64,000 bases of DNA from Kofleriaceae bacterium. Its GTDB lineage: Bacteria > Myxococcota_A > Polyangia > Haliangiales > Haliangiaceae. The notes beneath the pieces are model-generated. The model ran no database searches, was not told where the DNA came from, and saw only the letters and a list, made by a program, of their open reading frames with translations. Shown here in pieces: positions 2,045 through 31,041 of the stretch. The DNA lies in assembly GCA_024762925.1 (NCBI GenBank), contig JANTGM010000010.1:1-64000 (forward strand). The letters are read 5' to 3'. Positions within the stretch are counted from its first letter, which is position 1. Each line of letters starts with the position of its first letter. A program made the translations under genes and the position numbers.

Positions 2045-3757
2045 TTACTCGCAGGTCAAAGGTCGCGACCCGGAAAACTTGATGCGTGGCTTTTTCGCGT
2101 CAAAGAAGTCACTGCCACGTAGCTCTCCACCGCGCTTGGTGAGTTCTGTTGCCATTGCATCGCGAATTAGCGGGCCGCCATCGATCACCGTTTCGAGGGG
2201 CTCAAGCCCCGCAGAGCCAATCAGGCCATCACCCCCAGAGGCAACAAAGTCAGAGGTAGCAACGGTAATGACGTCCGCGTCGCGCACCACTTTGCCGTTC
2301 GGCCGAGTTATTCGAATTTCCAACGCGCCGCGCTTGCACTTCGCATCTACGAAAACTCCCGAGACGCTGAGCAGTCCGTTGTCGCGAACGAGATTGGCGG
2401 CAAAGAGGTTGCGCAGCGTTTTGCCCCTGAGCTTCACCAGAGCAAATCGATTGTCAAACGGCATTGCTTCAAATAGGCCGCCATAGTTGAGCGGCCCGCT
2501 TGGAAGGTCGGATCGGAGACTGCCACCGTTTGTGATTGCCACATCGGCGCCTGGCTGTGCTGCCAGCATCAAGTCGGTGAAGAGGTCTCCTAGCGCCGAG
2601 GCATCAGAGCGTGAACGCTGGATCCCGTTGGGCAAGGTAATGCCGAGCTCTTTGGAGCGCAGCGACTCGGCCACCGCCTGCGCCTCAGTAGCGACGGCGA
2701 GAACGTTCGCATCGATCTCGACTTGCGCTTCTTCGTACAAGCCGGGGGAGCATGTGGGCCCTTTGCCTTCGGAGCAGAGAGGCCGAGGCGGGAAGATCTT
2801 CTCAAACGCTATGCTGCCATCCGTCGCCACGCTGAAGTCCACGCGACCAAAGGCCTTGCCGTAGGAGTAGGACTCGATGATAGCGATCCCATTGACCTCG
2901 TGGGCCATTGCGCGATGGGTATGCCCCGCAACGATGACATCAACACTGCCTTTTGGAAGTGCGGCTGCAACTTCCATGATTTCGTGGGCACTACAGCTTG
3001 AGAGGTCCTTTGGATCTGAGAATTCTTCGCACTCGCCACCTGCATGTGCGGTAACAAGAACGGCTTGAGCACCTGCAGCGCGAAGGGCGCTGGCGTGCTC
3101 GTCGATGCGTGCAGCGAGCGGTGCCATCGAGAGCCCGATGAAGTTGGCTGGTAGTGTGACGTTTGGGGTTTCAAACGTTGAGACGCCAATGATGCCAAGC
3201 TTGATTCCTTGCACGTCGTGCATCATGGCTGGCATGACGTTGGGCCAGTCGATGGCCGCATGGGTTTCATCATCAAATATGTTGGAGCTGAGAAAGGGGA
3301 AGCTCGCATCTGCGGCTCGGGCCTTTAACGCTCCACGTGGATCTTGCCCCGGCTTGGAGACCGTAGCTTCGGGGCCAATGGGGCCGTAGTCAAATTCGTG
3401 ATTGCCGATGGCTGCGGCCGTGTAGCCGAGCATATTGTAGGCGGTGACAATCGGAGCGCCTTCTTCAAGATTCGATGCGAGGGTGCCCTGGAACATGTCG
3501 CCTCCATCGAGGAGAACGACAGCGCGCTCGGGGTGACTTCTAAGAATATTTAGGTAGCCACCAAAGAGGGGCAGCATCTCGACATGACCGTGAAGGTCGT
3601 TGGTGCCGATGATGCTTAGGGTGGTGATTGGTGGAGCCGGTGGAGCCTTGATGCCCGGATCCGCCGTGTCCTTTGCCGTGGGCTCATTGGGCCCACAGCT
3701 TGCCCCTGAGAGCCCTAGAAGGACAAGTATCGTGAATGAAGCTGAGAAGTACCGCAC
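2045..3757 (-). CDS. Bifunctional metallophosphatase/5'-nucleotidase (UshA family) lipoprotein
   Basis: Calcineurin-like motifs LLDGGDMFQG, GNHEFDYG and AGHTHRAM are present with a C-terminal 5'-nucleotidase substrate-binding region. The N-terminus LLGLSGASCG is a lipobox. Confidence 0.8.
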   Translation of the reverse strand: MRYFSASFTILVLLGLSGASCGPNEPTAKDTADPGIKAPPAPPITTLSIIGTNDLHGHVEMLPLFGGYLNILRSHPERAVVLLDGGDMFQGTLASNLEEGAPIVTAYNMLGYTAAAIGNHEFDYGPIGPEATVSKPGQDPRGALKARAADASFPFLSSNIFDDETHAAIDWPNVMPAMMHDVQGIKLGIIGVSTFETPNVTLPANFIGLSMAPLAARIDEHASALRAAGAQAVLVTAHAGGECEEFSDPKDLSSCSAHEIMEVAAALPKGSVDVIVAGHTHRAMAHEVNGIAIIESYSYGKAFGRVDFSVATDGSIAFEKIFPPRPLCSEGKGPTCSPGLYEEAQVEIDANVLAVATEAQAVAESLRSKELGITLPNGIQRSRSDASALGDLFTDLMLAAQPGADVAITNGGSLRSDLPSGPLNYGGLFEAMPFDNRFALVKLRGKTLRNLFAANLVRDNGLLSVSGVFVDAKCKRGALEIRITRPNGKVVRDADVITVATSDFVASGGDGLIGSAGLEPLETVIDGGPLIRDAMATELTKRGGELRGSDFFDAKKPRIKFSGSRPLTCE

Positions 3758-3763
3758 GAGTGC

Positions 3764-4480
3764 TTAGGGCTGCGGGCAGCTACCGATGTTGAAGCTGATC
3801 GTTTCACTCATCATGCTGCAGCCACCTTTTACAAGGGTTGGATCGGTCACCGCTGCGACCTCGGAGAAGACAACGTTTGTCATCGTGCCAGACACGCCTT
3901 CGGCACAGATCGTGTCGAAGACGATCGTACCGGAAGTGGCGCCGTATGGAGTGTGTGCGGAGAAGGTATTGATGTCGACGTCGTTTCCGGCCGCAGCTGC
4001 GGGAGCTGACAAGGTTCCAATGGCTTCAGCCAAGTCGTATTCGACGCCAGTCTCTAAGGTGAGATCAAAGACGACTGCGCCTACATCCAGCGTTGCTCCG
4101 ACAATTGGTGCAAGGGCGACGATGACAGGTCCTTGCGCAAAAATCTGGTCAAAGCCACTGCCGCCAATCTGTGAGGGCACGAAGTCTGCTGGGCATGCAC
4201 ATGGGGTTGAACCGGTACAGATTTGCCCCGGAGAATCACAGGTCTCACCGCAGCCACCACAGTTGAGGGAGTCGGTGCTGGTGTCGGTGCAGACTCCATC
4301 ACACACGGTACCCAAGCAGGGCGCCGCGTCCGGGACAACGGTTGATGCGTCAGGAATGGGAGGCGCTGCATCTGTGAAAGTGACCGTCGGGGCGTTGTCG
4401 TCGCCACTGCAGGCTGGGGTGAGGCCAAGGCCGAGAAGAAAGGGAAGGGCAAGAAGAGAACTTGGCGTTGATAGGCGCAT
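3764..4480 (-). CDS. Cys-rich secreted lipoprotein, unknown function
   Basis: ATG at 4480 gives MRLSTPSSLLALPFLLGLGLTPACSGDD with a lipobox. A cysteine knot CDGVCTDTSTDSLNCGGCGETCDSPGQICTGSTPCAC follows. The gene ends 7 nt upstream of the 5'-nucleotidase gene on the same strand. Confidence 0.55.
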   Translation of the reverse strand: MRLSTPSSLLALPFLLGLGLTPACSGDDNAPTVTFTDAAPPIPDASTVVPDAAPCLGTVCDGVCTDTSTDSLNCGGCGETCDSPGQICTGSTPCACPADFVPSQIGGSGFDQIFAQGPVIVALAPIVGATLDVGAVVFDLTLETGVEYDLAEAIGTLSAPAAAAGNDVDINTFSAHTPYGATSGTIVFDTICAEGVSGTMTNVVFSEVAAVTDPTLVKGGCSMMSETISFNIGSCPQP

Positions 4481-4556
4481 GTGGCAAATGACTCCGAAGA
4501 TTTGAGAATCCGTTCCTACCACGCCCGGCAAGCGCAGGGAAGCGAGCAAAACTCCA

Positions 4557-5909
4557 TCAAACCTCTACGTTTGCCCAGCTGCGTCGGCGCCAAACCACCA
4601 TCAAAACGGCGGATTGCAGCACTCGGTAGACGATGCGGGCCGTCCAAACGCCGATGAGCCCCCATCCGAGGACTGGCCCGATGACATAGGCGGCAGGAAG
4701 AAAGAGCAGCCATTGCATGCCGACATTGATGATAAGAGCAGTTCGAGTCGCGCCAGCGCCCATGATGCTGTTGAGCAGAACCATCAGGATGGCCTCGCCC
4801 CACACTGTGAGGCCGGCGAGTCGCAACGGGAGAATCGCTAGCTCCAACGCTTCTGGTTCATTGCTGAAGAACGCCTCAAGAATGAGACGAGGGGCGATTG
4901 CCATAGGCAAGCCAAGGCACACCATGATGGCGACCCCAACTTTGATGACGTCCCACGCCCAGCGCTCGGCATCGTCGATGTCCTTGCGACCCAAGGCTTG
5001 GCCAACGAGCGTTGCTGCAGCCAAGCCGAGTCCGAGTCCGGGAAGAAAGGCGACCATGGTCACGGTAATGAGTACGTTCATGGCCGCAACTTCAAAGGTG
5101 CCAACGCGACCCACGATTGTGAAGAGGGCAGTTAGGCCAGCGGCAAAAAACATGGATTGAAGCCCGGAGGGGACAGAGAGCTTCAACATCGAGAGCATGG
5201 TCTTGCGATCGGGGAGGCCCCGGAGAAATCCCGCCAAACGCGCGTGCGCCATTCCTAGGTAAAAGTAGTAGGCTGTGCCTATGAAGCCTGAAGCTGCGGT
5301 GCCAATTGCCGCTCCGGTGGCGCCCATCGCCGGAGCTCCCAAGGCGCCAAAGATCAGCACGTAGCTAATCGCAACATTGGAGATGTGCATGACGATCAAG
5401 GTGCGCAGATAGAGCTTGCTCTTGTTAACGCCGTTCCAGTAGCCGCGAAAGGCGAAGTTGGAGCCGATGGCAATCATGGCGATGAGCCGTACCTGAAGAT
5501 AGGGGACACCAATGCCTACAACCTCGGTGTCGGTTGTGAGGGCGCGGAAGAATGCTGGGGCTGTGAAAATGAGCACTGCGGAGAGCGGGATGGAGATGGC
5601 GGCGACGAGAAGAAGCCCGCCGTTTAGTGCAACCGCCGTTTCCGATTCGCGACCTTCGCCCTTTCGCCTAGAGGCGATGACCTGCACGCCCGTTGACATG
5701 CCCGTGACAAAGGCAATACCCAGGAAGTTGGCGAAGCTGCCAAAGCCCACTGCCGCGATCGACTTTGCCCCCAGGCTCGAAACCATGAGGGTATCGACGA
5801 GGTTGAGGATCGTCTGCGAGACCATTCCCAACATGATGGGGACGGCGAGCGCGAGAATCTGCTGGCGCCTCTTCGTTGGAAGACCGAGCACTAGCGCGTT
5901 TCCATCCAT
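4557..5909 (-). CDS. MATE family efflux transporter
   Basis: About 12 predicted TM helices. The N-terminus MDGNALVLGLPTKRRQQILALAVPIMLGMVSQ is typical of NorM/DinF-like MATE proteins, and the two-fold repeated architecture fits. Start taken at the internal ATG at 5909. Confidence 0.7.
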   Translation of the reverse strand: MDGNALVLGLPTKRRQQILALAVPIMLGMVSQTILNLVDTLMVSSLGAKSIAAVGFGSFANFLGIAFVTGMSTGVQVIASRRKGEGRESETAVALNGGLLLVAAISIPLSAVLIFTAPAFFRALTTDTEVVGIGVPYLQVRLIAMIAIGSNFAFRGYWNGVNKSKLYLRTLIVMHISNVAISYVLIFGALGAPAMGATGAAIGTAASGFIGTAYYFYLGMAHARLAGFLRGLPDRKTMLSMLKLSVPSGLQSMFFAAGLTALFTIVGRVGTFEVAAMNVLITVTMVAFLPGLGLGLAAATLVGQALGRKDIDDAERWAWDVIKVGVAIMVCLGLPMAIAPRLILEAFFSNEPEALELAILPLRLAGLTVWGEAILMVLLNSIMGAGATRTALIINVGMQWLLFLPAAYVIGPVLGWGLIGVWTARIVYRVLQSAVLMVVWRRRSWANVEV

Positions 5910-20581: not shown

Positions 20582-21151
20582 CTATTTTTTTGGGCCGATG
20601 CCCAGCTCATCTGCATGGGGCCTAAGGGCGTCGATAATCATCTGGATGTGGGGCTTGAGTTCGACGTTGAGGAGCTCGACACCAGCATGAACCTCTTCGC
20701 GCTCAACACTGGCAGCAAAGCGCTTGTCTTTGAGCTTCTTGACGACCGACTTTGGAGTGAGGGTCTCGACGCCTTCGGGGCGCACCAGGCAGCAAGCCAT
20801 AACAAAGCCCGTGAGTTCATCGCATGCGAGCAGAGCGCGGTCGAGACTCGAATCATATGGCACGCCCCACTTGGTGTAGTGCGCGGAAATCGCGTGCGCG
20901 ATGGATTCCTCGCCGCGATCGCGTAGCCATTCCACGATGCGCTGTGGGTGCTGATCGGGCCAGGCCTCGTAGTCGGCGTCGTGCAGCATTCCGGCAATGC
21001 CCCAATCCTCAAGCGCTTCCTGCTCGCCATGTTGTTCACAGGCCGCACGCATCACAATCTCCACTGCACGTGCATGCTTGCGCAGCGACTCTCCTTGTGT
21101 CCATTCGCAGAGGTGAAGCCAAGCGGTATTGCGGTCGAGTGTCTTTGCCAT
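20582..21151 (-). CDS. HD-domain phosphohydrolase
   Basis: H...HD signature (LRKHARAV...GMLHDADY) plus a downstream acidic D (ACDELTGF); 189 aa. Confidence 0.6.
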   Translation of the reverse strand: MAKTLDRNTAWLHLCEWTQGESLRKHARAVEIVMRAACEQHGEQEALEDWGIAGMLHDADYEAWPDQHPQRIVEWLRDRGEESIAHAISAHYTKWGVPYDSSLDRALLACDELTGFVMACCLVRPEGVETLTPKSVVKKLKDKRFAASVEREEVHAGVELLNVELKPHIQMIIDALRPHADELGIGPKK

Positions 21152-21315
21152 CGCGCTCGACTATACGACGCACGGCAAACCTATGCGAAAGGCTCTGCGA
21201 AGTTGATGCTCGGCTCGGAATCCTCAGAGGACAACATAGGCACATTCGGCCCTGCGGGGGACACACTCGCACCAACGCTGCAGTCGCAAGAGAATCTTCC
21301 AAGGGGCCAAGGGCA

Positions 21316-23058
21316 ATGATATCCTCCTCGTCGCGAGGTGTGGATGCGAGGCAGTGCGTGACCAAGCGAAGTCGAACAAAACTTGTCGACGCCCTTGAAG
21401 AGTTGGTGGCTCTGCAGACTCTTGCAGAAGGGGGCCGTGCGAGCTTTCGGGCGCGCGCCTTTGCCCAGGCCGCCAAGGTTGTTGCAGACGACGCCGGGAC
21501 ATCCAACATGTCACTGGCCCGACTCAAGGCACTGCCTGGCCTTGGCAAGTCAACGGCCGAAGTGATTCAAGAGTACTTTCGAACTGGCAAGATTGCGCGG
21601 CTGGAGGAGTTGCGTACACAGTATCCTCGGGAACTCGTAGAGCTCACACGCATTCCAGGGTTGGGGGCAAAGACCGTTCTGCGGTTGCGCGATGAAGCTG
21701 GCATTTGCAATCTAGCGGGCTTGCAGAAGGCGATTCGCGAGGAACGCGTGGGCAAGCTACCTGGTCTTGGAGGCTGGACAGAAGAGCGCATGCGGACGGC
21801 GATTTCGCATATCGGTGCAAAGCATGATCGGCGGCCGATTCACATCGTCTTGCCCATTGCCGAGTCGATCCGAAACGAGCTTGCCCACCTACCAGAAGTT
21901 TCTGGAGCATATCTCGGTGGCAGTCTGCGCCGATTGGAATCGACGATTGCTGATGTTGATGTGCTCGTTGTCTCCGAAGAACCCGCAAGTGTTCTCTCGT
22001 TTTTTCTCGAGATGCCGCGCGTTACCGATGTGATTGTCGAAGGGAAACACATGGCGTCGGTCTACGTGGAAAGCGGACTGCAGGTGGATCTTCGCGTGTG
22101 CACACCAAACGAGATTGGTCCGGCGATGTTGCATTTTTCGAGTGGGCGCAATCACAACATTCAGCTTCGCATGCATGCGCACGATCGAGACCTCTCGCTC
22201 AATGAGCATTCGCTGCACCATCGCGGAACCGACGATGTCGTCTCACAAGGATCGGAAGAGGAACTCTACGAGCTTCTTGGGTTGCCCTGGATTTCTCCAG
22301 GGTTGCGGCAGGGACGCGGCGAAATCGCCGCCGCACTTGAGAACAGCCTTCCACATCTCGTTGATGTGGACTGCCTGCAAGGCGATCTGCGCACCAACTA
22401 CGACGAGTCAGAAGGCGTGGAGCTCGTGTTGGAGGCGGCTCGGGCGCTGGGCTACAGCTATCTGGCGATCGCAAGTTCTGCTGAGGAGTCCGCAGCAAAA
22501 AAGCGTGTGCAGTCAGAGGTTGGCCAGTGGCGCGACCGAACCTCGGACCTCTTGATTCTGCATGCTGGCGTGGTGGCAATCGACGATCAGGGATATTCTG
22601 AGTACTCAGAAGAAGACCGAGCCAACTATGACTTCTGCATCGCCTTGCTCGACGGGCACCACCAGCTCTCGGAGTCAGAGCAGACCGAGAGGTTGATCAC
22701 GGCGATGGAGGATCCCGCAGTGCGGATTCTGGCACAGAGTAGTGGTCGTCAAATCGGTGAGTTTCGCGGGATTGAGTTTGATGAGCGAGCGGTACTTGAA
22801 GCCGCAAGGGAAAATGATGTGGCGATTGAGATTGGCTCGGAATTGACCCGACTCGATCCACCGTCCGCGTTTATTCGACGAGGTAGCGAAGCGGGTAATC
22901 TCTTCGTGATTAGTTCCTGCGCAAAAAACGCTGAGGAACTGCAGCAAATTCAGTACGGCATTCGACACAGCCATCGCGGATGGCTCGATCGAGCCATGTG
23001 CATCAATACATGGAAGCGGGCCCGGTTTGAGGAATGGCTGCAGGCGCCGTATTCGTAG
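21316..23058 (+). CDS. polX: DNA polymerase X family protein with a C-terminal PHP (3'-5' exo/phosphoesterase) domain
   Basis: Helix-hairpin-helix motifs (LPGLGKSTAEVI, IPGLGAKTVLRL). Pol-beta palm motifs (GSLRRLESTIADVDVLV, DLRV). The PHP region carries His/Asp clusters (LHFSSGRNHNIQL, DGHHQ). ATG at 21316; the longer ORF-track start would overlap the convergent HD gene. Confidence 0.8.
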   Translation: MISSSSRGVDARQCVTKRSRTKLVDALEELVALQTLAEGGRASFRARAFAQAAKVVADDAGTSNMSLARLKALPGLGKSTAEVIQEYFRTGKIARLEELRTQYPRELVELTRIPGLGAKTVLRLRDEAGICNLAGLQKAIREERVGKLPGLGGWTEERMRTAISHIGAKHDRRPIHIVLPIAESIRNELAHLPEVSGAYLGGSLRRLESTIADVDVLVVSEEPASVLSFFLEMPRVTDVIVEGKHMASVYVESGLQVDLRVCTPNEIGPAMLHFSSGRNHNIQLRMHAHDRDLSLNEHSLHHRGTDDVVSQGSEEELYELLGLPWISPGLRQGRGEIAAALENSLPHLVDVDCLQGDLRTNYDESEGVELVLEAARALGYSYLAIASSAEESAAKKRVQSEVGQWRDRTSDLLILHAGVVAIDDQGYSEYSEEDRANYDFCIALLDGHHQLSESEQTERLITAMEDPAVRILAQSSGRQIGEFRGIEFDERAVLEAARENDVAIEIGSELTRLDPPSAFIRRGSEAGNLFVISSCAKNAEELQQIQYGIRHSHRGWLDRAMCINTWKRARFEEWLQAPYS

Positions 23059-23230
23059 GCCTTGCTAATCGGGATTCCCAAAAACGAGAACGTGGAGAAG
23101 CTCTTGTGGGGCAGAGGGTCGCAAGATCCCGTGGAGGAGCTGTGCAAAGCCCTTTCGTGGGCATCGTGATTGTTTTGGCCGCCTAAAGAATTTGCTCAAA
23201 GGTTGAGCTTGGCAGAGTCGGCCTTAGCCC

Positions 23231-24424
23231 CTAAGGAGCTATGGCGAGTTTCCGCTTGGTATTCATGCGCACCGCCAGTCGCTTGGCGCCCCACGTGCCC
23301 GGCGTTTCTTCAAAAAGACCGGCACAGGCTTCACCACAGCGGTTGCAGCATCCCTTAGCGTCGAGATTCCATTCGCTCAGCTGATACCAGTTGCGGCCTA
23401 CAAGGCGCTGCTGACACCCGTGACAGTAGGTGCTGTGTCCTTCTTCGTCATGCACGTTGCCCGTGTAGACGTAGCGAATCCCGTATTCCTGGGCGATGGA
23501 TCGCGAGCGGCGCAGGCTCTCTTTGGACGTTGGATCGCGATCACGCATGCGGTAGTCGGGGTGAAAGGCGGAAAAGTGCCATGGCACATCGACTCCAATG
23601 TTTTCCACAATCCACTGACAAGCGTCGTGAACTTCGTGCTCAGAGTCGTTCTCCCCTGGGATTAGCAGTGTTGTGATTTCAAACCACGTATCTGTTTCGT
23701 GCTTGAGATACGTGAGCGTGTCGAGGACCGGCGTGAGCTTGCCTGTGCAAAGTTTCTTGTAGAAGTCTTCTGTGAACCCCTTCAAATCGACATTGGCCGC
23801 ATCGATGTGTTCAAAGAACTCTTTGCGAGGTTCGTCGTGAATGTAGCCTGCTGTGACCGCAACAGTTTTGATGCCGAGATCGTGACACGCCAGCGCTGTG
23901 TCGACCGCATACTCTAAGAAAATTACTGGATCGTTGTAGGTGAAAGCGACAGACTTGCAGTTGTTGTCTTTCGCTGCCTTGGCGATTGCCAGTGGCGTGG
24001 CTGCGTCGGCGAGAGTGTCAACCTCGCGGGACTTGCTGATGTCCCAGTTCTGGCAAAATGTGCACGTCAGGTTGCAGCCAGCGGTGCCAAAGGAGAGCAC
24101 GGGGGTGCCAGGGAGAAAGTGGTTCAGGGGCTTCTTCTCAATCGGATCCACACAGAACCCGCTGGAGCGTCCATAGGTGGTTAACACCATTTCGTCGCCT
24201 TCACGGGCACGCACAAAGCAGAGTCCCCGCTGCCCTTCCTTGAGCTTACAATCCCTGGGACATAGGGTGCACTGCACCTGCCCATCAGCTGTCCTACGCC
24301 AATAGCGCGCTGGAAAGTGACTTGCATCTGTCTCGTTCGTATCCACTCTGTACAAGGTGCGACCTAGATTGAGGAAGTCAACTATCATGTCCCAAATGCT
24401 CAGACCGCCCGCCGTTGCAGGCAC
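23231..24424 (-). CDS. AmmeMemoRadiSam system radical SAM enzyme
   Basis: CxxxCxxC cluster CNLTCTFCQNW. N-terminal ARYW...DGQVQCTLCPRDCKL and a C-terminal CxxC (CHGCQQRL) fit the AmmeMemoSam_rS family. It is divergent from Memo/AMMECR1. Start uncertain (24424 GTG or 24388). Confidence 0.8.
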   Translation of the reverse strand: MPATAGGLSIWDMIVDFLNLGRTLYRVDTNETDASHFPARYWRRTADGQVQCTLCPRDCKLKEGQRGLCFVRAREGDEMVLTTYGRSSGFCVDPIEKKPLNHFLPGTPVLSFGTAGCNLTCTFCQNWDISKSREVDTLADAATPLAIAKAAKDNNCKSVAFTYNDPVIFLEYAVDTALACHDLGIKTVAVTAGYIHDEPRKEFFEHIDAANVDLKGFTEDFYKKLCTGKLTPVLDTLTYLKHETDTWFEITTLLIPGENDSEHEVHDACQWIVENIGVDVPWHFSAFHPDYRMRDRDPTSKESLRRSRSIAQEYGIRYVYTGNVHDEEGHSTYCHGCQQRLVGRNWYQLSEWNLDAKGCCNRCGEACAGLFEETPGTWGAKRLAVRMNTKRKLAIAP

Positions 24425-25175
24425 GTTTTACTCTTCCAATCGCAATGACTTAGCCGCTGCGGTGCACGGATACTTGGATGAGGCTCCGGCTCTCACGCTC
24501 ACACCAAAAGCGCTCATTGTGCCTCATGCAGGCCATGTGTATTCCGGCCCAATCGCCGCCACAGCCTTTCGCTTGCTTGTGCCGCTTGCGCAAACGATTT
24601 CGCGGGTTGTGCTCATGGGGCCCTGCCATCGGGTCGCTGTTGATGGGCTTGCGCTCTCCAGCGCCGATCGGTTCTCAACGCCTTTGGGCGAGGTGGATCT
24701 CGATACGGCCGGAGCTGCAACCCTCGCCGAGCTGTCATGCGTGGGCTACTCCGATGCCGCTCACGCCCAGGAACACAGTCTCGAAGTGCAGTTGCCATTT
24801 CTTCAACAAACGCTCGGCCCGTTTCGCCTTCTTCCGATTGTGTGTGGTCGCGCAACTACTGCACAAGTTGCGACGGTGCTTGACGCTGTCTGGGGTGGGC
24901 CTGAAACGCTTATCTTGATCTCATCGGATTTGAGTCACTTTCACGATTATGAGACTGCTCGGCGCATGGATCTTCAGGCGACTCGGGCGATTGAAGAGCT
25001 CGCTCCAGAAAAACTCGCAGACGTGAATGCGTGTGGGGCCACGCCTGTTCGCGGCTTGTTGCAGGTGGCGCGCAACCGGGGGCTCGTCGAGACGACACTG
25101 GACGTGCGCAACTCCGGAGATACGGCTGGGGCGAAAGACCGAGTTGTCGGCTATGGAGCCTACAGTTTTGCCTAA
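24387..25175 (+). CDS. MEMO1-family protein (AmmeMemoRadiSam system protein B)
   Basis: RBS GAGGAAG precedes the ATG at 24387. The motifs AGTFYSS and PHAGHVYSGP are typical of Memo. Confidence 0.8.
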   Translation: MSQMLRPPAVAGTFYSSNRNDLAAAVHGYLDEAPALTLTPKALIVPHAGHVYSGPIAATAFRLLVPLAQTISRVVLMGPCHRVAVDGLALSSADRFSTPLGEVDLDTAGAATLAELSCVGYSDAAHAQEHSLEVQLPFLQQTLGPFRLLPIVCGRATTAQVATVLDAVWGGPETLILISSDLSHFHDYETARRMDLQATRAIEELAPEKLADVNACGATPVRGLLQVARNRGLVETTLDVRNSGDTAGAKDRVVGYGAYSFA

Positions 25176-25770
25176 CAGCGGCACAGGTCAGCACATTGCC
25201 GACAATGATCGGGCAAGCCTTCTGGCGGTCGCACACCGAGCTGTGGCTCATGGAACGGAGTCGCGGCATCCTCTAGATATTCGCTCGGAAAAATTCTCAG
25301 AGGCTCTCGAGGCGGTAGAAGCCGCATTCGTATCCGTGTATGTCGACGGGCAGCTGCGCGGCTGCACCGGAGAACTCGAAGCTTATCGAAGCCTTGTCTC
25401 GTCGGTTGTGCACAATGCACACCGGGCCGCTTTCCTCGACGACAGATTTCCCGCAATCCAGGCAGCGGAGTTGCCTCGTTTGCGCATTCGCATTTCGGTG
25501 CTCACGCCCCAGGTGCCCTTGGAGTTTCGCGATGAGAACGACTTGCTTCGCAAGCTTGAGCCGGGCGTCGATGGTCTAACGATCCGAGCCAATGGGCGCC
25601 AGGCAACCTTCTTGCCGTCCGTTTGGGACACCGTTTCTGTGCCCGCTGAGTTTCTCGCTCATCTCAAGCATAAGGCGGGGCTGCCACTCATACCGATACC
25701 TGGACTAAAAGCCATGCGTTATCAGACCGAGAACTTTGGCGATGACGAACGAGCAAGCCAGCCTTCATGA
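25153..25770 (+). CDS. AMMECR1-domain protein (AmmeMemoRadiSam system protein A)
   Basis: The FVSVYVDGQLRGCTGEL block matches the AMMECR1 RGCIG core. The gene overlaps the Memo 3' end by 23 nt (translational coupling). Confidence 0.75.
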   Translation: MEPTVLPNSGTGQHIADNDRASLLAVAHRAVAHGTESRHPLDIRSEKFSEALEAVEAAFVSVYVDGQLRGCTGELEAYRSLVSSVVHNAHRAAFLDDRFPAIQAAELPRLRIRISVLTPQVPLEFRDENDLLRKLEPGVDGLTIRANGRQATFLPSVWDTVSVPAEFLAHLKHKAGLPLIPIPGLKAMRYQTENFGDDERASQPS

Positions 25771-25883
25771 GCTCACAACGAACGAGCTTGTCAATGTGAT
25801 GAATCGCTCGCAGCCGCATCGCTTGAGGTAGTGGCTGGCATGCGTTCCGCCTTTTTGCGTGCGCAATTCGCAATATTGAAGTG

Positions 25884-26315
25884 CTAGAAGACTGACTTCG
25901 TTCTGCACAAGTTGTCGCGACACTCGGTACGAATCTGGGATGGAGTGGCTGCGTTGCCATCTTCAGTTTGTGGCGGTCTGGCCGGGCAGCCACAACCAGG
26001 GAAGAGTGCACTGCACTCCGCCTCCGATGTTGTGAACGCATCAACAGCAGAGGCATTGATGCCAACTGCTTCGGAATTGCCACAGCAGTCGGTTTGGTGG
26101 AACACCATGGCGCAATCGTTGACATCGACACAGGACTTGTCAGCGGGTGCAAAGGAGACTGGTCCAGCGCTGCACGTGAAGGTCTGAAGTCCATCAGAGG
26201 AGCCATCCACACTTGGTGTACCCGCATCCACCCCAGAGGCTGGTCCCGAACCACCCTGACAAGCTCCAGCGAGAGCGACAACAACAACCAGGGGCGAGAT
26301 GTGAGTAGCGAGCAT
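25884..26315 (-). CDS. Cys-rich secreted lipoprotein, unknown function
   Basis: Lipobox VVVALAGACQGGSG. There are 12 Cys, including CAMVFHQTDCCGNSE and FPGCGCPARP. Confidence 0.5.
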   Translation of the reverse strand: MLATHISPLVVVVALAGACQGGSGPASGVDAGTPSVDGSSDGLQTFTCSAGPVSFAPADKSCVDVNDCAMVFHQTDCCGNSEAVGINASAVDAFTTSEAECSALFPGCGCPARPPQTEDGNAATPSQIRTECRDNLCRTKSVF

Positions 26316-28660: not shown

Positions 28661-28891
28661 CTACAATGCGGCAGTTTCCAAGCCAGCTTGCGATATTGCC
28701 CTTGCCCCAATAGTTGGGTTTTTGTTCTTGGCGAGGGAGCGACGTTGCAGCTCTATGGACGCTCGCAACTCCATAGTCGTTGGCGTGGACAGGCTGCGCC
28801 ACCAGCAAAAGCAACAAGAGGCCCACGAGCAGAATCCGCATGAGGCCTAATACGAGCGGGGGCTTCATCCGTTGCCTCGTATCTCGGCTTT

Positions 28892-28934
28892 CGTGCTCCA
28901 GAGCGAAGCATGTGGAGTGCTCCAGAGCGAAGCA
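28892..28934. repeat. 18-bp direct repeat (gtgctccagagcgaagca x2, spacer tgtgga) about 95-135 bp upstream of the MVP start
   Basis: Read directly: cgtgctccagagcgaagca tgtgga gtgctccagagcgaagca. Confidence 0.6.
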
Positions 28935-29025
28935 GCCAGTCATGCGCGTCTCGAACTTCCGCGCACCTAGCCCCGGCATACGACTTGCTCTCATGCACCG
29001 CGAACCCCAGAAAGGACGATTGCTT

Positions 29026-31041
29026 ATGGCCGAACGCGACATTCGAGAACGAGATATTTTGGTAGCCCCAAACGAATATGCTTACGTGCAAGACTTAACC
29101 AAAGGCGACATCGTGCTCTACGTCGGTCCCACCAAGGTTAGTCTCAGCAATACCGAGCGCATGATTGAGCATCGCGATGGCCGTTTTGTGCCTGTGCGAG
29201 GCGATGAGGCCGGTATGAGCGTGCACCGTTTTGTCGGCGCGACTTCATCGCAATACATTATTCTTCAGAACCCTCCCAAAGATCCGGAAACGCAGGCTAC
29301 CAAGGGCGCCAACTCAGCAGTGCTACTAGAAGTTGGTCGCACGCTTGTTGTGCCCGGTCCGGCGGAGTTTCCTTTGTGGCCAGGGCAGACCGCTCGTGTC
29401 GTGGACGGTCATCGCCTGCGCGAGAATGAGTATCTCGTATTGCGGGTCTATGATGATGACGGCCAGGGGTCGCCCATTGGCACCGAAAGCATTCTGCGAG
29501 GAAGCGATCAGAGTTTTTATCTGCCAACAACGGGGCTCGAAGTGGTGCCCAATCGGGATGGTAACTATGTGCGCACGGCTTGGCGCTTGGACCACAGTCG
29601 AGGACTGCACTTGCGGGTGACAGCCAGCTTCGAGACGGGGGAGGAGGACCTCTTGCCACCAGGGCGCTACCAGGCTGGCCAGGATGTCTTCTTGCGGGGA
29701 GGTGCTGGTTTCTTCTTTCCAAACAGCAGTATCCACGTCGTCGCAGAGGTCGAAGCGATTCCTTTGGCGGAGAAAGAGGGGATTTATGTGCGAGACCTTG
29801 AGAGCGGCGGGGTACGCACCGTGGTTGGTCCGCAGAGCTATCTAGTCGATCCGACAAAAGAAGAACTCGTAGGAAGACCTCTAAGTGACGAGGTTCGAGC
29901 GTCCTGGAGGATTTCCAAGTACAGCGCAAAGCGCGCTCCTGCGATCTACGTGCCTCCCAGCGAGGCTGTCTTGATTATCGCGCCCAGTCGGCGAGAACTC
30001 GTGATGGGGCCGCAAGTTCGGGTGCTCGATTTTGATGAGGAGCTTGAGGTTTTGCAGCTGAGCACCGGACGGCCAAAGAGCAACGCCAACCTACTCGATA
30101 CCTGCTTCCTGCAAGTGCAAGGCAACAAGGTCTCGGATCGCGTGCAGTTGCAGACCGCCGATCACGTTGATCTCATGGCGACGCTCTCGTATCGCGTCTC
30201 GTTTGTCGGAGACAACGAGAAGTGGTTTGCTGTGCGCAACTACGTGGAGCTCTTGTGCGATCATCTTGGCTCGATCATTCGATCGGCAGCGCGCGCAACC
30301 ACGATTCACGACTTTCATGGATCATCGGCTCAGGTGCTGCGCGACGCTATCTTAGGATGCCACGAAGATTCCGGTGCCCGGACTGGTCGTCACTTCGAAG
30401 AGAATGGGATGTGGGTCTACGATCTTGAGGTTCTCGATGTGAGCATTCAGGACACCGACGTTCTGGAGATGTTGCAAAGTTCGCAGCGGGCCGCGATAGC
30501 CAGTGCGATTCATCGCAGTAGTGAAGATCGACGACTTGGAGACGAGCAGCTCAAGGAGTCTGTCAATTTGCGAATCATGAAGAGCCAAATTGCGACCCTT
30601 CAACAAGCCGCTGAACACGAGGCGACAAGTCGCGGTGTCGAGCTAGCGCGCACTGGCACACGGCTCGAAATCGATCGCATGGACAGAGTTGGACGGGCAA
30701 AGAACGCGGCTGACGCAGCATCCATCACCAACACAGCCCAACTTGCGTTGCAAAGCGCCAAGGCCGAACTTGAGGCCCAAGCCCTCGCAGCAAACGCAGA
30801 CGCCTTTTGCCAACAGATGCAGAGCCTCCAACCGGAACTCATCGCAACCTTGAAGAGCTTGGGCAACAAGCAACTCGCCGGCGAGCTCACAAAGAACTTG
30901 GCACCACTCGCTATCCTAGGTGGCGACTCAGTTGCCGATGTTGCCTCGCGGCTCCTTGAGAGTCTGCCAATGACCGGCAGCGCCGGCGGAATTCGCGATC
31001 TCCTTGTGGCTCCGGCGTGCGCTGCCACCGAAGAGGACTAG
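29026..31041 (+). CDS. Major vault protein (MVP) homolog
   Basis: RBS AAAGGA lies 9 nt before the ATG at 29026. [34 protein letters not shown] matches human MVP [49 protein letters not shown]...[19 protein letters not shown] matches VLSLSAGRPKRPHARR...IETADHARLQLQLAYNWHF. The N-terminus has MVP-repeat-like beta modules. An SPFH-like shoulder and a C-terminal coiled cap-helix region follow. Confidence 0.85.
   Translation: [671 protein letters not shown]

Follow-up and report, generated by a model that had tools for sequence, protein, structure and literature searches.

Introduction

Eukaryotes retain AMMECR1 and Memo but are not known to have the radical SAM enzyme of the AmmeMemoRadiSam system, so this protein pair can work without a radical step. 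We know of no human orthologue of the radical SAM component. A preliminary description of the DNA analyzed here had presented the whole system as conserved from archaea to humans, which holds for AMMECR1 and Memo, but not for the radical SAM component.

The association of the genes was described in 2007 by Balaji and Aravind, together with a prediction of RNA base modification, and AMMECR1 was reported to adopt a duplicated RAGNYA fold with a cleft containing an invariant Cys (PMC2034487). In one survey, the AMMECR1 Pfam family was the strongest anaerobe-associated family, present in 50.7% of anaerobes vs. 3.4% of aerobes (PMC13386939). Our literature search found no functional characterization of the AmmeMemoRadiSam system, and its function was not settled by any publication or solved structure that we found.

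Results

Composition of the locus

The window, that is, the whole stretch of 64,000 nucleotides analyzed, contains three intact genes within 23231-25770. They form one locus, in which a radical SAM gene on the minus strand (23231-24346, 371 a.a. from GTG 24346) is arranged head-to-head with two overlapping genes on the plus strand, encoding a Memo-like protein (protein B; 24387-25175, 262 a.a.) and an AMMECR1-like protein (protein A; 25168-25770, 200 a.a. from TTG 25168). The open reading frames and motifs quoted previously were recovered for all three genes: ARYW, CTLCPRDC and CNLTCTFCQNW in the radical SAM frame (23231-24424, minus strand, 397 a.a. at its maximum), AGTFY and PHAGHVYSG in the Memo frame (24357-25175, plus strand), and RGCTGEL in the AMMECR1 frame (25027-25770, plus strand).

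Family membership was assigned with the curated NCBIfam models and their curated cutoffs, and Pfam was used as a second profile set. The radical SAM protein matched TIGR04337 with 637.2 bits (cutoff 220; E 5e-192; model positions 1-349 of 349), the Memo-like protein matched TIGR04336 with 250.7 bits (cutoff 26; E 1.5e-74; positions 1-270 of 270), and the AMMECR1-like protein matched TIGR04335 with 157.8 bits (cutoff 99; E 1.7e-46; positions 3-174 of 175). The Pfam results agreed, with matches to Radical_SAM, Memo (7e-49) and AMMECR1 (8e-37). The matches to the three system-specific models are thus far beyond chance, confirming the complete divergent trio that had been proposed. The base composition around the trio is that of the rest of the window. 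The likeness to the AmmeMemoRadiSam system comprises the cutoffs passed over the full model length, the adjacency of the genes, and the presence of every family-invariant residue. The best explanation, to which we assign a probability of about 0.85, is that 23231-25770 is a standard, intact AmmeMemoRadiSam cassette of a Myxococcota-like genome, with the radical SAM gene divergent from Memo followed by AMMECR1.

The partner proteins were compared with their solved counterparts. Conservation across 59 sequences was seen for H47, H81, H130, D181, H184 and C216 of the Memo-like protein. This protein shares its Pfam family with human MEMO1 (PDB 3bcz, 7kq8), and H47, H81, H130, D181 and H184 align to the MEMO1 motifs PHAG, GPSH, EH and SSDFCH, corresponding to the metal-ligand motifs PHAG, GPxH, EH and SSDxxH. 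This alignment (E 4e-18) is confined to residues 6-186, and C216 lies outside the comparison because the alignment ends at query residue 186. The locus protein is a member of the system-B clade of prokaryotes (TIGR04336), and it scores below the cutoff of the MEMO1-family model NF001987 (161.1 vs. 295). The AMMECR1-like protein has the AMMECR1 domain and the RGCxG and DxRF motifs in common with the archaeal proteins MM0484 (PDB 1zq7), PH0010 (1vaj) and ST0229 (1wsc), but represents the system-A clade and falls below the cutoff of the archaeal/eukaryotic-type model TIGR00296 (71.9 vs. 91.05). Its LRGCxG motif (here LRGCTG, with C71) is invariant in 31 sequences, at least 95% of which also conserve DxRF (here DDRF).

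The Memo stop codon occupies 25173-25175, and AMMECR1 starts either at ATG 25153 (205 a.a., 23-bp overlap) or at TTG 25168 (200 a.a., 8-bp overlap), confirming that the two genes overlap. TTG 25168, preceded by GGAG 9 nt upstream, is the only AMMECR1 start common to the window and two of its close relatives, L081 and L082. Memo and AMMECR1 are probably translationally coupled.

The radical SAM enzyme and PFL activase

In the radical SAM enzyme, the CX3CX2C motif (C105/C109/C112) is 100% conserved in 76 sequences, in which an N-terminal Cys4 set (C40/43/47/57) and a C-terminal Cys4 set (C322/325/348/351) are likewise invariant (all numbered from the Met at 24388). The best solved-structure matches of an AF2 model of the enzyme (pLDDT 84.5, pTM 0.87) were the PFL activase structures of PflA, 3c8f, 3cb8 and 8fo0 (E ~1e-12, TM 0.78 over the target, 19% identity), and no solved structure was found for this radical SAM clade. 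The partial TIM-barrel radical SAM core and CX3CX2C are common to both enzymes. In the model, beta-rich N- and C-terminal modules fall outside the PFL-activase-like core, and the fold is predicted to consist of this core plus two extra Cys4 modules. These modules account for ~125 residues more than in PFL-AE, which has 245 a.a. and lacks them.

The radical SAM protein might instead be a genuine activase of a glycyl-radical enzyme (PFL-AE, NrdG or similar), with its adjacency to Memo and AMMECR1 being incidental. PFL-AE is indeed the nearest solved fold, the JGI label on homologues is 'pyruvate formate lyase activating enzyme', and many activase models give weak matches. However, all of these matches are far under the cutoffs: TIGR02493, representing PFL activase proper, gave 61.7 bits (cutoff 231.75) and NF008356 gave 41 (cutoff 375), with TIGR02494 (35.7 bits) and TIGR02495 (29.1 bits) also sub-threshold, as compared with 637 vs. 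220 for TIGR04337. In addition, no glycyl-radical enzyme is encoded by any of the eight ORFs of at least 600 a.a. scanned in the window, which represent kinases, PolX, vault-like, LamG, transporter, trehalase-like and TIGR02996-domain proteins. The family-specific Cys4 modules and the recurrence of Memo and/or AMMECR1 in the flanks of related loci also argue against this reading. This explanation is hardly credible overall, and its activase assignment is effectively refuted by the model scores. A match to PFL activase proper, named in the preliminary description as the observation that would overturn the trio, was thus not obtained.

Start codons of the divergent pair

The sequence CATG at 24386-24389 provides both strands with an ATG, beginning at 24388 (minus) and 24387 (plus). 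We compared the start codons in four aligned loci, the window and its three closest relatives (L081, L082 and L083), in which the radical SAM enzyme is 83-88% identical. The (A/G)TG at 24346 is the only radical SAM start codon common to all four loci, and the third-codon-position bias of the radical SAM frame is found only downstream of 24346. At the position of ATG 24388 (385 a.a.), two relatives have ATT or ATC. No Shine-Dalgarno sequence precedes GTG 24346 in any relative. This comparison suggests that GTG 24346 is more likely to be the radical SAM start than ATG 24388, against which the three relatives argue. The farthest candidate, GTG 24424 (397 a.a.), has a reasonable GGAAGAG upstream, and was rejected because a TGA interrupts the extended frame in L083 and L081 has CTG at this codon.

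The Memo ATG 24387 is invariant across the four loci, with GAGGAAG, a plausible ribosome-binding site, 10 nt upstream. An in-frame alternative, GTG 24357 (272 a.a.), is ATG in the relatives. The spacing between the divergent starts is therefore 40 bp (GTG 24346 and ATG 24387), shrinking to 10 bp with 24357 as the Memo start. The start codons had been placed within a few bases of each other; the adjacent ATGs in CATG are real, but the likelier GTG 24346 gives 40 or 10 bp rather than an overlap. In all three of the start configurations considered in silico, the start codons are at most 40 bp apart.

Control elements of the head-to-head spacer

The 40 bp between the favored start codons (24347-24386) were inspected in the alignment of the four loci. 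Two blocks, the plus-strand GGAAGTCAAC (24373-24382) and GTGCG/ATGCG (24357-24361), are conserved in the close relatives even at would-be third codon positions, and the spacer lacks third-position bias in either reading frame. A palindromic operator, which the preliminary description had suggested looking for, was not conserved: the sole palindrome found in the head-to-head region, the imperfect CACTCTGTACAAGGTG at 24344-24359, is missing from the three close relatives. An FNR/CRP-like box on the minus strand (TTGAC-TTCC-TCAAT, ~24381-24367) was also discarded, as it has TTGA-N5-TCAA instead of N6 and the relatives do not share it.

A search of 23100-25900 for sigma-70 consensus promoters gave no hits. 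A leaderless radical SAM mRNA initiated from a TTGACT -35-like box is speculation, and doubtful because the -10 candidate (CACCTT) is weak and GTG start codons are ill suited to leaderless translation. The only terminator-like site in the same interval, for which shuffled sequence averages 3.5 such sites, is a hairpin at 23194-23208 (minus strand), identified by consensus match only, ~23 nt past the radical SAM stop codon. An Rfam scan of 20-29 kb gave no matches, so that the locus has no tRNA, rRNA or other RNA element next to it.

Because the head-to-head starts are so tight, the two promoters are predicted to overlap each other or the 5' end of the opposite gene. Judging from the start spacing, it still follows that the promoters would interleave with coding sequence, and overlapping promoters would co-regulate the radical SAM and Memo/AMMECR1 units.

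Related loci

A search with the radical SAM enzyme yielded at least 8000 homologues, all with E<=1e-30. In the three closest relatives, as far as the contigs reach, Memo is divergent in 3/3 and AMMECR1 is confirmed only in L081, and their flanking genes differ. The divergent-adjacent layout occurs at 22 of 83 related loci and a co-directional operon likewise at 22; these layouts are the two commonest. Memo and/or AMMECR1 are found within the flank at 61/83 loci, and neither partner is found within ~6 kb at 22/83. The spacing in the window is at the short extreme of the 22 divergent loci (anchor-to-anchor 92 bp; range 92-238 bp).

The notion that this copy offers a special handle on function did not hold up in view of the abundance of homologues and of the divergent layout. 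The AmmeMemoRadiSam cassette is an already known type, and nothing of substance sets this copy apart; it is a routine instance, since the cassette is already catalogued and the divergent layout is among the two common ones.

ORF clustering of 84 loci revealed no further gene family in more than 10/84 loci, although the clustering is noisy because antisense ORFs were included. The lack of a fourth conserved gene, together with the unrelated neighborhoods, indicates that the substrate is most likely not locally encoded.

Discussion

By homology, the radical SAM enzyme would bind a [4Fe-4S] cluster through C105/C109/C112 and reductively cleave S-adenosylmethionine, and hydrogen atom abstraction by the resulting 5'-deoxyadenosyl radical would take place in an active site resembling that of PFL activase. 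The two family-specific Cys4 modules may serve as auxiliary metal sites or as partner-docking sites. AMMECR1 would supply a cleft in which the cysteine of RGCxG is invariant, and Memo would supply a metal centre of the His/His/His-Asp/Cys type, built on a LigB-type scaffold. The substrate could be the partner protein(s) themselves, as for an activase, or a macromolecule that is ubiquitous, for example an RNA base, and the system would probably work under low-oxygen conditions.

What the system modifies can be read in several ways. An RNA or nucleotide base, with AMMECR1 binding nucleic acid, the radical SAM enzyme performing the radical step and Memo processing the intermediate, is a possible target that we hold short of probable. 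It accords with the RAGNYA-fold cleft and its invariant Cys, the Tyw3p/Tyw1p analogy and the archaeo-eukaryotic distribution (PMC2034487), as well as with the lack of a locally encoded substrate in the 84 clustered loci, and the 57-70% identity of the radical SAM enzyme across phyla fits a universal, invariant substrate. However, we found no experimental support for it in the searchable literature, no RNA element adjoins the locus, and the nearest characterized fold neighbor acts on a protein loop. This last point agrees with an equally tentative view, in which the radical SAM enzyme is the activase of its own partner, for example at the AMMECR1 RGCxG loop, and installs a radical or a post-translational modification as PFL-AE does on PFL. 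The closest relatives in sequence and structure are activases that act on proteins (in 3cb8, the enzyme is bound to a peptide substrate), the partner genes are tightly co-located, and a separate substrate gene is not conserved. Nevertheless, the eukaryotic pair persists without the radical SAM enzyme, the 22/83 loci without a nearby partner fit poorly, and the conservation of AMMECR1 is far below that of the radical SAM enzyme (36-48% vs. 57-70% identity).

A macromolecular substrate is not secure, because the identity to PFL activase is only 19% and relatives in the clade also act on small molecules. A 2019 paper by Burroughs et al. (J Biol Chem 294:10211, listed among the references of PMC7159879) is said to have proposed an isoprenoid, lipid or small-metabolite context for AmmeMemoRadiSam. 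PFL-AE-like radical SAM clades include small-molecule enzymes, and Memo is built on a LigB-type small-molecule enzyme scaffold, both in favor of such a metabolite; nevertheless, no lipid or isoprenoid gene adjoins the locus or recurs in the 84 loci, and we consider this substrate class unlikely.

The combination of the spacer as a dedicated bidirectional control element with a radical SAM enzyme acting directly on its partner as an activase is quite improbable in our estimation. Such an element could determine how much radical SAM enzyme is made relative to Memo/AMMECR1, perhaps by means of antisense transcripts that overlap at their 5' ends, and the partner target may be, for example, the AMMECR1 RGCxG loop. 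If true, either the spacer control or the partner-activase result alone would be the first mechanistic foothold on the AmmeMemoRadiSam system.

Taken together, the locus is one further standard example of the AmmeMemoRadiSam cassette, for which an automated annotation would already assign names to the three genes. The system itself is widespread, strongly associated with anaerobes and related to two human disease-linked proteins. The locus shows that the cassette is self-contained, without a fourth conserved gene, and the two transcription units starting at most 40 bp apart in this lineage offer a small region in which promoters and transcripts could be mapped.

Family assignment of the trio

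The ORF listing contained all three genes of the cassette with every motif named in the preliminary description: a 397-aa radical SAM ORF on the minus strand (23231..24424; ARYW, CTLCPRDC, CNLTCTFCQNW), and plus-strand ORFs for Memo (24357..25175, 272 aa; AGTFY, PHAGHVYSG) and AMMECR1 (25027..25770, 247 aa; RGCTGEL). All three proteins exceeded their NCBIfam cutoffs: the AmmeMemoRadiSam radical SAM enzyme scored 637.2 bits against 220 in TIGR04337 (model positions 1-349 of 349), Memo 250.7 against 26 in TIGR04336 (protein B; 1-270 of 270), and AMMECR1 157.8 against 99 in TIGR04335 (protein A). The Pfam matches were Radical_SAM, Memo and AMMECR1. These results confirm the complete divergent trio and support its earlier interpretation. 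The competing identity raised there, a pyruvate formate-lyase (PFL) activase proper, did not hold, with a TIGR02493 score of 61.7 against a cutoff of 231.75. All other glycyl-radical activase models in NCBIfam scored far below threshold, and no glycyl-radical enzyme was found among the window's eight ORFs of at least 600 aa. The GC content around the trio (0.55-0.58) was at the level of the remainder of the window.

Three cysteine motifs of the radical SAM enzyme (numbered from the Met at 24388) are invariant or nearly so in 76 sequences and present in the window: CX3CX2C (C105/109/112), the N-terminal C-x2-C-x3-C-x9-C (C40/43/47/57) and the C-terminal CxxC...CxxC (C322/325/348/351). The same holds for Memo H47, H81, H130, D181/H184 and C216 (59 sequences), all of which except C216 align with motifs in human MEMO1, and for LRGCxG and DxRF of AMMECR1 (31 sequences). 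The AlphaFold2 model of the radical SAM enzyme (pLDDT 84.5, pTM 0.87) best matched PFL activase (3c8f, 3cb8, 8fo0) among solved structures (E ~1e-12, TM 0.78 over the target, 19% identity), relative to which the two Cys4 modules are predicted to form additional beta-rich appendages. The solved-structure search found no entry for the AmmeMemoRadiSam radical SAM clade itself.

Start codons and the divergent spacer

The radical SAM and Memo starts had been described as lying within a few bases of each other, and CATG at 24386-24389 indeed provides one ATG per strand. We compared this region with the three metagenome loci (L081, L082 and L083) that encode the closest radical SAM proteins among the matches listed, at 83-88% identity. 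The Memo ATG at 24387 was kept in all four loci, with GAGGAAG, AGGAAG or GGAGAAG 10 nt upstream. L081 and L082 have ATT and ATC, respectively, in place of the radical SAM ATG at 24388, a TGA in L083 interrupts the extension to GTG 24424, and (A/G)TG at 24346 is the sole start codon of this gene common to the four loci. Variability at codon positions 1, 2 and 3 of the radical SAM frame was 5/14, 8/14 and 8/14 over 24388-24347, which is not coding-like, and 7/21, 6/21 and 16/21 over 24346-24270, a coding pattern also seen in the Memo frame over 24387-24460 (10/25, 5/25 and 16/24), in agreement with a radical SAM start at 24346. The homologues, mostly 360-375 aa among the matches listed, are compatible with a 371-aa product. 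A 'PATAGGL' peptide in the radical SAM frame (24389-24424, minus strand), antisense to the Memo N-terminus, seems conserved in all four loci because it is the antisense image of the conserved PPAVAG codons of Memo, an illustration of how apparent N-terminal conservation can arise where genes overlap head-to-head.

Judging from the relatives' start codons, the starts used are probably 24346 and 24387, separated by a 40-bp spacer rather than overlapping, and we favour this configuration. Two others remain: starts at 24388 and 24387 overlapping at CATG, as first described, and starts at 24346 and 24357 with a 10-bp spacer, the latter Memo start being present in all four loci (GTG in the window, ATG in the relatives) with an unconvincing ribosome-binding site. 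Since the starts lie at most 40 bp apart in all three configurations, we infer that at least one of the promoters extends into the opposite gene or shares sequence with its counterpart. Automated gene calling seems to be misled by divergent starts this close together: in L081, the radical SAM call (4370-5368) is shortened to 332 aa, starting at VRAREGD and losing the N-terminal Cys4 motif, and the Memo call (3406-4134) is shortened to 242 aa with a TTG start within the conserved N-terminus.

For AMMECR1, TTG 25168, with GGAG 9 nt upstream, is the sole start common to the window, L081 and L082. The gene overlaps Memo by 8 bp from this start or by 23 bp from the alternative ATG 25153, in either case suggesting that the two may be translationally coupled.

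The spacer contains two conserved nucleotide blocks, GGAAGTCAAC on the plus strand and (G/A)TGCG, the former being most simply a putative Memo ribosome-binding site. The suggested search for palindromic operators yielded a single palindrome (24344-24359), which is not kept in the three close relatives; neither is an FNR-like TTGA-N5-TCAA in the spacer region. No sigma-70 consensus promoter was found in 23100-25900 and no Rfam element in 20-29 kb. A terminator-like hairpin (23208-23194, minus strand) follows the radical SAM stop.

Layout and neighbourhood

We mapped Memo and AMMECR1 around 83 radical SAM genes, comprising the three close relatives and 80 genome loci from many phyla (57-70% identity). 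The divergent, adjacent layout of the window and a Memo(-AMMECR1)-radical SAM operon each occurred in 22 loci, radical SAM-Memo in six, a non-adjacent flanking Memo in nine and AMMECR1 only in two; the remaining 22 had neither partner inside ~6 kb. The locus is thus an ordinary example of a system already in the catalogues, and its layout is one of the two most frequent. In divergent loci, the conserved N-terminal anchor residues are separated by 92-238 bp, the minimum belonging to the window and its close relatives, followed by Magnetospirillum (96-97 bp) and a Kuenenia MAG (105 bp). The flanking genes vary even between the closest relatives, and in a clustering of all flanking ORFs, made noisy by the antisense ORFs it included, no other family reached beyond 10 of the 84 loci, which argues that the trio is a self-contained module without a locally encoded substrate.

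In the 80 genome loci, the radical SAM enzyme differs unusually little between phyla (Alphaproteobacteria, Acidobacteriota, Planctomycetota, Omnitrophota, Actinomycetota; 63% identity in a MAG labelled as a Halobacteria archaeon), with identities of 32-60% for Memo and just 31-48% for AMMECR1. Strong constraint or horizontal transfer, or a combination of them, may be responsible.

Other genes were also noted. A PolX-type DNA polymerase gene (20824-23058, plus strand; HHH_8, HHH_5, DNA_pol_B_thumb) is convergent with the radical SAM gene; its 744-aa ORF overlaps the adjoining gene for a small HD-domain protein (20582-21151, minus strand), so its true start is probably further downstream. Directly 3' of AMMECR1 lies a convergent 143-aa Cys-rich ORF (25884-26315, minus strand), with no Pfam match and not kept beside the trio in the flanking-gene comparison. 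A bacterial major-vault-protein-like ORF (28780-31041, plus strand; MVP_shoulder, 5e-26, Vault_3, Vault_4), 100% identical in product to the called protein P0121 (671 aa), has at least 374 homologues at E<=1e-10, most without an organism label; the few labelled ones are mostly from Myxococcota (Haliangium, Haliangiales, Kofleriaceae, Labilithrix, Archangium), with one Acidobacteriota and one Planctomycetes MAG. The window also encodes many Ser/Thr kinases, hybrid histidine kinases, and MopE and TIGR02996 domains; taken with the labelled vault relatives, these point to a Myxococcota (Haliangiales-like) MAG of ~57% GC as the probable source.

Possible chemistry and substrate

In the proposed chemistry, SAM is split reductively at the CX3CX2C cluster of the radical SAM enzyme, which then removes a hydrogen atom in a site resembling that of PFL activase. 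The invariant Cys cleft of AMMECR1 and the His/Asp/Cys metal centre of Memo may act on the same substrate. As no substrate gene accompanies the cassette, the substrate is likely to be either one of the partner proteins or a ubiquitous molecule. Isoprenoids or other small molecules, a context reportedly treated by Burroughs et al. in 2019, seem doubtful. The partner-protein option, which draws on the activase analogy, and RNA or a nucleotide base, predicted by Balaji and Aravind in 2007 (PMC2034487), are each possible at less than even odds.

The stated conservation from archaea to humans stands for AMMECR1 and Memo and fails for the radical SAM enzyme; to our knowledge, just two of the three components have human orthologues. 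The gene association has been published since 2007 (PMC2034487), and our full-text literature search found no functional characterisation of the system. AMMECR1 ranks among the top-priority uncharacterised archaeal families (PMC6393860). The family is strongly linked to anaerobes, occurring in 50.7% of anaerobes versus 3.4% of aerobes (PMC13386939), which fits oxygen-sensitive radical chemistry; its presence here would be unusual if the host is an aerobe.
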